Of a stretch of 59,892 bases of DNA, positions 56,363 to 56,426 are shown one piece after another. The stretch covers positions 1 to 59,892 of the IMG/VR virus record IMGVR_UViG_3300021085_000033; one strand, written 5' to 3'. Each line of letters begins with the position of its first letter. Position 1 is the stretch's first letter. This DNA is from a virus. Its lineage: Duplodnaviria; Caudoviricetes. The notes under the pieces were generated by a model. It worked only from the letters and a program-made list of their open reading frames with translations, was not told the origin of the DNA and searched no databases. Made by a program: the position numbers and the translations under genes.

Positions 56363-56426
56363 AGTCCTCAGGGGGACTTTAAATAGGCTTTAGGCCCTGA
56401 GCGTGACCACTGCGGTGGTCGGTAGC
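56363..56426 (+). ncRNA. Pistol self-cleaving ribozyme
   Basis: P1 AGTCC/GGACT; loop TCAGGG forms a pseudoknot with CCCTGA; TTAAATAG; P2 GCT/AGC; GCG; P3 TGACCAC/GTGGTCG; GT cleavage dinucleotide 56422/56423. Confidence 0.92.

Follow-up and report, generated by a model that had tools for sequence, protein, structure and literature searches.

A pistol self-cleaving ribozyme between two small genes of an uncultured podophage and its possible role in separating messages

Why would a phage keep a self-cleaving ribozyme in the short gap between two of its small genes? The question is raised by positions 56363-56427 (+) of the IMG/VR virus record IMGVR_UViG_3300021085_000033, whose 59,892 nucleotides (nt) were analysed as a whole and are called the window below. 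An earlier note, made from the letters alone, had recognised there a pistol ribozyme in a Bacteroidota-type phage. By family membership, this segment is a genuine canonical pistol self-cleaving ribozyme, and its sequence predicts that it is very probably functional. The best explanation of its presence, which we regard as probable if far from secure, is that an active pistol would cut a polycistronic early transcript between cistrons, constitutively. That such processing between cistrons is also the purpose of the pistol is a view towards which we lean, by no great measure.

Identity, architecture and selection on the fold

In a scan of both strands of the window with Rfam 15 (cmscan, gathering threshold), the Pistol family RF02679 was the sole match. 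Its score was 54.9 bits against a gathering value of 34.5, with an E value of 2.9e-07 for the whole window against 4227 Rfam families, and the alignment covered positions 1-68 of the 68 in the model without truncation. The score of the full model lies above the gathering value by a margin of 20 bits, and the same place and score were returned by a laxer scan of 52500-59892 and by a genome-wide search. The covariance-model search that the earlier note had suggested has been run in this way, and the full-length score is not a poor one. Regarding the proposed extent, the start at 56363 stands whereas the end at 56426 does not, as the Rfam match reaches 56427, one base beyond. The P1, pseudoknot, linker, P2, GCG, P3 and GU site were all recovered at the positions at which they had first been read, and are listed here with their evidence (alignment A1 is described below).

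56363-56427 (+): pistol ribozyme, full length (RF02679, 54.9 bits)
56363-67/56374-78 (+): P1 hairpin of 5 bp, AGUCC/GGACU, whose 6-nt loop is the 5' strand of the pseudoknot (sequence)
56368-73/56395-56400 (+): pseudoknot of 6 bp, UCAGGG/CCCUGA (sequence)
56379-56386 (+): A-rich linker UUAAAUAG (sequence, Rfam alignment)
56387-89/56424-26 (+): P2 of 3 bp, GCU/AGC (sequence, Rfam alignment)
56390-56394 (+): junction UUAGG (Rfam alignment)
56401-56403 (+): conserved GCG, G56401-C56402-G56403 (invariant in alignment A1)
56404-10/56415-21 (+): P3 hairpin of 7 pairs, a U-G wobble and 6 Watson-Crick pairs, with the loop UGCG (sequence, Rfam)
56422-56423 (+): predicted scissile G/U junction (model positions 63-64, posterior '*'; site by analogy with PMC4604425)

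All the features by which pistols are recognised are present, namely P1, the pseudoknot, the P2 and P3 stems, the 2-nt G-U junction and the conserved core. In addition to the three pairs of P2, G56386 lies opposite A56427 and was not flagged as negative-scoring by Infernal. In the part of the literature drawn on here, the junction between P3 and P2 of pistols is described as strictly 2 nt long, usually G-U, and as carrying the scissile bond (PMC4604425). The active site of the env25 pistol is described, likewise in the part drawn on, as comprising purine-32, the G33-C41 pair, the general base G40, G42 and the G53-U54 scissile step (PMC6154101). The Rfam model pairs positions 32 and 40, hence one number below env25. 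On the mapping taken from this pairing, G56393 would correspond to purine-32, G56394-C56402 to G33-C41, G56401 to G40, G56403 to G42 and G56422-U56423 to G53-U54; so mapped, every active-site position is present in the window's pistol. In alignment A1, AAA at 56381-83 of the linker is invariant, as are G32, C33, G39, C40 and G41 (in the numbering of the window copy, one below env25).

Pairing was examined in alignment A1, which comprises 31 of the 41 unique viral pistols gathered in the next section; pistols with very short or low-scoring P3 regions were left out (L015, L016, L017, L018, L022, L035, L040, L042, L045 and L048). Covariation was counted for P1 and the pseudoknot only, the 3' ends (P2, P3) being out of register in MAFFT. 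P1 is 99.4% paired with double changes at 5/5 pairs, and the pseudoknot helix is 96.2% paired with double changes at 5/6. Taken together, the two helices are 97.7% paired and show double changes at 10 of 11 pairs, a result reached by 0 of 500 shuffles, while slid controls gave pairing of 26-43%. The fifth pair of P1 (5/12) is C-G in the window alone and G-C in 30 of the 31 aligned pistols. Compared with the pistol of the sister contig L009, the window has A-U, G-C and G-C in the pseudoknot where L009 has U-A, G-C and A-U, so that two pairs differ and both are compensated. A 7.4-kb contig of a related strain, from a public run, differs at two pistol sites: G56393>A exchanges a purine for a purine at the predicted purine-32 position, and A56409>G leaves a G-U pair in P3 in place of A-U. 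Since the core is kept and the changes in P1 and the pseudoknot are compensated, continued selection on folding of the pistol is indicated. The covariance-model score, the presence of the catalytic positions and these compensated variants bear out the first identification of the element.

When only nested pairs were allowed, the fold of the pistol region had no significant stability (z = -1.11 against shuffles), although its centroid displays the pseudoknot helix and P3. This is no mark against a pistol, because the RNA of this class is pseudoknotted. With 54.9 bits, the window's copy scores below the 71.7 bits of its sister contigs.

Gene context and recurrent position between genes

The pistol occupies 65 of the 94 nt between two flanking conserved open reading frames (ORFs), all on the same strand. 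It begins at the second base after the TAG stop codon (56359-61) of the upstream gene, and the predicted cut lies 33 nt ahead of the next ATG (U56423 to A56456). Both distances agree with the earlier note, which had placed the start 2 nt after one stop codon and the cut 33 nt before the following start. The same arrangement recurs in other viral contigs. For comparison, 36 viral contigs were gathered with an exact core pattern resembling the window copy. An Rfam-grade pistol was found in 36/36 of them (13/13, 15/15 and 8/8 loci), giving 45 pistols with the window included, 41 of them unique. None of the 45 lies inside a same-strand ORF of at least 40 amino acids (aa), and three lie under an opposite-strand ORF of at least 60 aa. 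Among the unique pistols, 28/41 start between -10 and +12 nt from the end of the upstream same-strand ORF, compared with 6.1% (470 of 7659) for random positions taken from these loci. The predicted cut falls 10-60 nt before the next ATG-ORF in 22/40, compared with 981 of 7954 in the random control (12.3%).

The immediate surroundings of the window's pistol and the other elements of the same gene array are as follows.

56023-56361 (+): upstream gene, 112 aa, ending in TAG at 56359-61; no Pfam or PHROG match
56456-56653 (+): downstream gene, 65 aa; sub-threshold Pfam matches only, no PHROG match
56423-56455 (+): 33-nt leader heading the predicted 3' product, with the repeated leader motif at 56434-56455 (sequence)
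55599-55648 (+): first spacer, compact candidate type I hammerhead that reaches into the end of the first ORF (RF00163; 29.7 bits, short of the gathering value of 34; E 3.4e-4)
55941-56022 and 56654-56731 (+): long hairpins in the second and fourth spacers, directly before the shared leader (sequence)
57612-57621 and 58011-58020, with similar copies near 58662 and 59120 (+): 10-base motif GGTTACTGAT directly before the leader in later spacers (sequence)

About 15 small co-directional ORFs make up this array (~55400-59657, +). Nine of its proteins gave nothing above the cut-offs when searched against Pfam, and ten searched against PHROGs matched 0 families. The spacers of the array follow a regular plan, in which a structured element comes first and an A/U-rich leader carrying a common motif runs up to the ATG; most of them end in this leader, and the motif stands directly before the ATG in seven array spacers. 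The leader 15-mer occurs exactly once in the window and, with up to 3 mismatches, 10 times against 6.6 expected, so that the repeat is visible only by a looser reading and a regular expression; the slots of the pistols were classified by eye and from Rfam coordinates. The hammerhead in the first spacer is predicted to cut after C55642, which would leave a leader of 31 nt, as compared with 33 nt for the pistol. The same RF00163 score was obtained in two related contigs at three loci (L002 and L007, which are one contig, and L010). The hairpin at 55941-56022 is kept in the related contigs L002 and L050, and neither of the two long hairpins matched an Rfam family. The 10-base motif likewise stands before the leader in the relatives L002, L010 and L032.

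The site at 55373-55404 (+), 960 nt upstream of the pistol, we take to be a promoter-like site of Bacteroidetes type. The consensus used for it matches the window 8 times, where 2.17 matches are expected, and 55373-55404 is the sole plus-strand match in the early region. A terminator scan returned no terminator-like plus-strand site in 55400-57278. Because a promoter-like site lies upstream and no terminator-like site was returned in that interval, the pistol would seem to be transcribed as part of a single RNA spanning several genes. The short repeat TAGCA stands on both sides of the pistol core, at 56359-63 and 56423-27; its first copy holds the stop codon and its second begins at the cleavage site. 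It could be chance or a trace of module insertion.

Several contigs of the comparison set carry more than one ribozyme, and the sequence after the cut repeats between spacers in L028, L025 and L041.

L028 306-4313: six pistols in 4 kb, co-directional (Rfam)
L041 3742-9597: two pistols and seven type II hammerheads, co-directional (Rfam)
L025 2993-5135: two pistols and two type-P5 twisters, co-directional (Rfam)
L020 359-2041: three pistols, co-directional (Rfam)
L037 1867-2616 (-), L019 1073-1287 (-), L031 8917-9203, L044 301-699 (-) and L025 11584-11635 (-): other RNA genes beside pistols or elsewhere in pistol-bearing contigs

With regard to these RNA genes, a GOLLD RNA has a pistol at a distance of ~300 nt, and two pistols are closely followed by tRNA genes; pistol-bearing contigs also contain, at other places, a HEARO RNA and, likewise, a glutamine riboswitch. 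The core pattern was also scanned in one genome per prokaryote species. The 80 of 82 loci listed, which are pattern matches only, come mostly from Bacillota, and Bacteroidota are named in four titles among them (Chitinophagaceae, Bacteroides, 'Bacteroidetes bacterium' and Odoribacter), again as pattern matches only.

Relatives of the phage and the weighing of possible roles

The window is a complete IMG/VR virus record, 100% complete by CheckV, of a 59.9-kb podophage. PHROG matches were obtained for portal, large terminase, virion protein and primase/helicase; that the phage is a tailed one is confirmed by all of these except the virion protein. Its large terminase has matches in 108 named phage records, none of which reaches 60% identity, among them phages of Flavobacterium (68), Cellulophaga (15), Bacteroides (3), Tenacibaculum (2) and Maribacter (1). 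The best match is an uncultured podovirus (47.5%), followed by Elemovirus phages (39.9%). The assignment to a Bacteroidota-type phage agrees with these matches, which are mostly to Flavobacterium and Cellulophaga phages, and the phage is, more narrowly, a relative of Flavobacteriia podophages, of a marine Flavobacteria type. No tRNA genes were found in the window, the whole region had no DNA match among named phages, and members of the RtcB and RNA ligase families gave 0 matches each among the phage proteins. The ends of the record (1-131 and 59762-59892) overlap by 131 bases with 3 mismatches, so that the genome may be terminally repeated or the assembly circular; the record is classed as linear. 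The minus-strand structural block is dominated by four large ORFs, at 10673-18796 (2707 aa), 39589-45066 (1825 aa), 21021-25628 (1535 aa) and 35587-39585 (1332 aa).

Homologues of the upstream protein were found in 4 viral contigs (79, 64, 64 and 42% identity) and those of the downstream protein in 6 (73-85%), so that the searches with the flanking proteins led to 9 distinct related records. By Rfam, on the loci and on the whole records, the pistol is kept in one of the nine (L009/L021, 71.7 bits). One further relative, L032, was added by the core-pattern scan, and the Elemovirus genomes NC_055853.1 and MW202828.1 have none (0/2). The pistols of L009 and L032 sit behind an upstream gene other than that of the window, and L032 has yet another downstream gene. 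In the related contigs, the leader is preceded by a type I hammerhead (L002, L049, L050), by a pistol (L009/L021, L032), by a hairpin or by nothing, and in alignment A2 the presence or absence of the pistol is clean, next to the leader. Since different ribozyme classes fill equivalent slots before one leader, this pattern points to cutting as the selected property. The sister phages, in which the same genes and leader occur with a pistol, with a hammerhead in an adjacent slot or with nothing, provide matched natural controls for the effects of cutting.

The following course of events would account for this arrangement. Transcription probably starts near 55405 and would read through the array of small genes. 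The newly made pistol would fold its P1, 6-bp pseudoknot, P2 and P3, and would cleave its own chain at G56422/U56423 through internal transesterification, in which the 2'-oxygen of G56422 attacks the adjacent phosphate. The upstream message would then end 61 nt past its stop codon; 60 of the 65 ribozyme nt would form its tail, with a 2',3'-cyclic phosphate at the terminus. The downstream message would begin with a 5'-hydroxyl (5'-OH) at U56423, on a 33-nt A/U-rich leader of the type repeated at neighbouring genes. In this way the cistrons would be uncoupled, allowing separate decay and separate translation, and the downstream gene would be given a standard 5' end, so that the pistol would be the natural counterpart of engineered ribozyme insulators. 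Separation of the cistrons with a standardised 5' end is ranked first because the leader is shared, because hammerhead and pistol would leave leaders of nearly the same length, and because the classes are exchanged at equivalent slots. The suggestion of the earlier note that the context points to mRNA processing fits both the gene context and the position statistics of the viral pistols, and transcription as a single RNA, cleavage in vivo and its consequence for the two messages are presumed here.

Several observations weigh against this account. The pistol is dispensable in the phage group: 8 of the 9 relatives found through the flanking proteins are without it, three of them being 95-100% complete by CheckV. 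In the closest relative, L002 (79% in the upstream protein), eight bases and then the leader follow the stop codon, with no ribozyme between the two genes, and L006 resembles L002 at the gene junction. In the comparison set, 18 of 40 pistols cut 101-1342 nt from the next called ORF, some of them preceding tRNA genes (L031, L044) or large RNAs. A cut just before a gene is therefore not universal, as these 18/40 lie more than 60 nt away. That set was itself chosen by the exact core pattern, and its ORFs were called mechanically (ATG only, at least 40 aa). The promoter consensus did not come from a scanning tool, and promoter scanning models do not cover Bacteroidetes promoters. In nested folds, the mean predicted unpaired probability of the start region (-25 to +12) is 0.63-0.67 in the uncut RNA versus 0.65 in the cut RNA. 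Finally, the public runs that overlap the window number 5 in 4 studies, with shares of 0.06-0.11, and all of them are assembled contigs, which are unable to show RNA ends, the four compared with the window having no accumulation of begins or ends; the sole run firmly recorded as RNA (X4) spans only 57437-57642 and 58066-58300, outside the pistol.

The separation of cistrons has a close and non-exclusive rival, in which the pistol mainly serves to form the upstream message's 3' end and to protect it. A compact pseudoknot and a 2',3'-cyclic phosphate behind the stop codon would slow 3' exonucleases, and the downstream 5' end would be a by-product; the two accounts overlap. It is in line with this rival that 60 of the 65 nt would remain on the 5' product, that the pistol begins at the second base past TAG, and that the predicted accessibility of the downstream start is unaltered by the cut. 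The link to stop codons (28/41; control 6.1%) is also tighter than that to start codons (22/40; control 12.3%). A compact phage genome alone would nevertheless give tight packing after a stop codon, and the upstream genes vary between the window and L009/L032, whereas the shared leader is always directly next. Type I hammerheads would also stay upstream, C55642 lying 6 nt from the 3' end of the element, so the exchange of classes cannot separate this rival from the best explanation. As the main purpose, protection of the 3' end seems rather unlikely. A further alternative, which we consider improbable, regards the pistol as a dispensable passenger: recombination at the repeated leaders would shuffle or spread it as part of a short ribozyme-plus-leader module, and phage fitness would be little affected. 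Such a history would suit its occurrence in 1/9 flanking-protein relatives and, by core pattern, in L032, the differing genes that flank near-identical pistols in the window, L009/L021 and L032, and the clean presence or absence beside the leader in pistol-less relatives. The 5-nt TAGCA repeat (56359-63 and 56423-27) would suit it too, but is easily chance. Against a passenger of this kind, every conserved core position is kept and changes in P1 and the pseudoknot are compensated, which speaks for continued selection on folding. Of the two changes in the related strain, moreover, one is a purine swap at purine-32 and the other replaces A-U by G-U in P3.

Two more alternatives were weighed. The pistol and the hammerhead at 55599-55648 lie on the same strand and bracket two genes, so that together they might excise a 780-nt two-gene RNA (55643-56422), to be joined or circularised by a host ligase of RtcB type. 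Ends consisting of a 5'-OH and a 2',3'-cyclic phosphate are the substrate chemistry of RtcB, which favours this idea. Nevertheless, the phage encodes no RtcB or RNA ligase (0 matches each), and no such joint occurred among the public-run contigs compared, contigs being a weak test. In the part of their paper drawn on here, Perreault et al. considered that products might be ligated or circular, and could not detect any (PMC3088659). Altogether, excision of this kind is very improbable. That the match arose by chance, or has decayed and lost its ability to cleave, is in our judgement hardly conceivable. The score of 54.9 bits against the sisters' 71.7, the mere three Watson-Crick pairs of P2 and a nested fold no stabler than shuffles could be cited for it; they are countered by the E value of 2.9e-07 over the window and 4227 families, by the retention of all core positions and by the compensated nature of the differences from the sisters.

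Two proposals about the products of cleavage were tried and rejected. Release of the start region from structure by the cut was discarded for want of support, as its predicted accessibility is about the same in the cut and uncut RNA. A hairpin at the 5' terminus of the downstream product (UAGCA-AUAA-UGCUA, 56423-36), which would compete with P2 and perhaps protect the end, was rejected as a general feature. It is kept in L009/L021 and not in L032, and a stem of at least 5 bp beginning at the first or second base after the cut occurs in 5/41 unique pistols (12%), compared with 9.3% with shuffled tails.

On a wider scale, it may tentatively be proposed, with somewhat less than even confidence, that the early genes of this Flavobacteriia-type phage group are cassettes, each made of a cutting element, one A/U-rich leader and ATG. 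The element would be exchangeable (pistol, type I hammerhead, branched hammerhead) and could be lost, and such RNA-only 'insulators' would dice the early transcript into single-gene messages, each with a 5'-OH end and an identical leader. The same design would have recurred independently in Firmicutes-type phages, for example in L028 with its six pistols and a repeated leader with a ribosome-binding site. If this is true, the phage group is a natural experiment on the purpose of bacterial self-cleaving ribozymes.

Comparison with known systems

The pistol class is reportedly due to Weinberg et al. in 2015. In the part of Harris et al. (2015) drawn on here, pistols are described as often lying near phage genes and as prevalent in Firmicutes and environmental DNA, with some in phage genomes, and a studied pistol is stated to cleave at ~10 per min under physiological conditions, leaving a 2',3'-cyclic phosphate and a 5'-OH (PMC4604425). 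As far as that description goes, the window's copy shares the architecture, the core and the setting of the known class, near phage genes and other self-cleaving ribozymes, with no structural difference (PMC4604425). It differs from the published distribution, within the same part of the source, in that it belongs to a marine phage, as yet uncultured, whose relatives are podophages of Flavobacterium and Cellulophaga. Among Bacteroidota, a pistol of Alistipes putredinis is reported there to cleave in vitro as a bimolecular construct (PMC4604425); compared by description only, it belongs to a gut Bacteroidales genome and the present one to a Flavobacteriia-type phage.

For hammerheads, a similar role has been put forward. 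According to the part of Perreault et al. (2011) drawn on here, clustered hammerheads were proposed to cut long phage transcripts into gene-length messages, and in halovirus HF2 the 5' end of a transcript was mapped to within three nt of a hammerhead cut, 13 nt before a start codon (PMC3088659). These phage and prophage clusters, as described there, share with the window the setting between co-directional genes. They belong to another ribozyme class, whereas in the present phage group pistols and hammerheads use equivalent slots before one leader. A 2019 review, in the part drawn on, treats the purpose of bacterial and phage self-cleaving ribozymes as unresolved (PMC6765202), with which the earlier note's remark that natural roles are largely unknown agrees. 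A literature search found no published demonstration of the function of a phage pistol, which is not proof of absence.

Among named phages, a 65-nt blastn search revealed an unannotated pistol of Rfam grade in Bacillus phage Chotacabras (MN153503.1, 155940-156008, 74.2 bits); 19 weaker records were short partial matches, many of them inside annotated protein genes. Like that of the window, the Chotacabras pistol lies close behind a small gene (4 nt after an annotated CDS) and between two small hypothetical genes in a co-directional run. It differs in belonging to a cultured 165-kb Bacillus myophage, which might serve as a model in the laboratory, and in that its cut would lie 91 nt before the next annotated start.

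The insulator RiboJ is said to be a self-cleaving ribozyme that is inserted immediately before the translation start region and gives the message a fixed 5' end whatever lies upstream. It is synthetic and hammerhead-based, and its likeness to the window's pistol is one of working principle, not of identity.

The association of pistols with phages and a tested Bacteroidota pistol are already published, and the window copy is ordinary for its class and less unusual than first implied. By itself it adds little. It extends pistols confirmed by covariance model to marine Flavobacteriia phages, and published alignments may already include relatives. Its value is comparative, and lies in the sister phages with and without a pistol and in the exchange of pistol and hammerhead before one leader.

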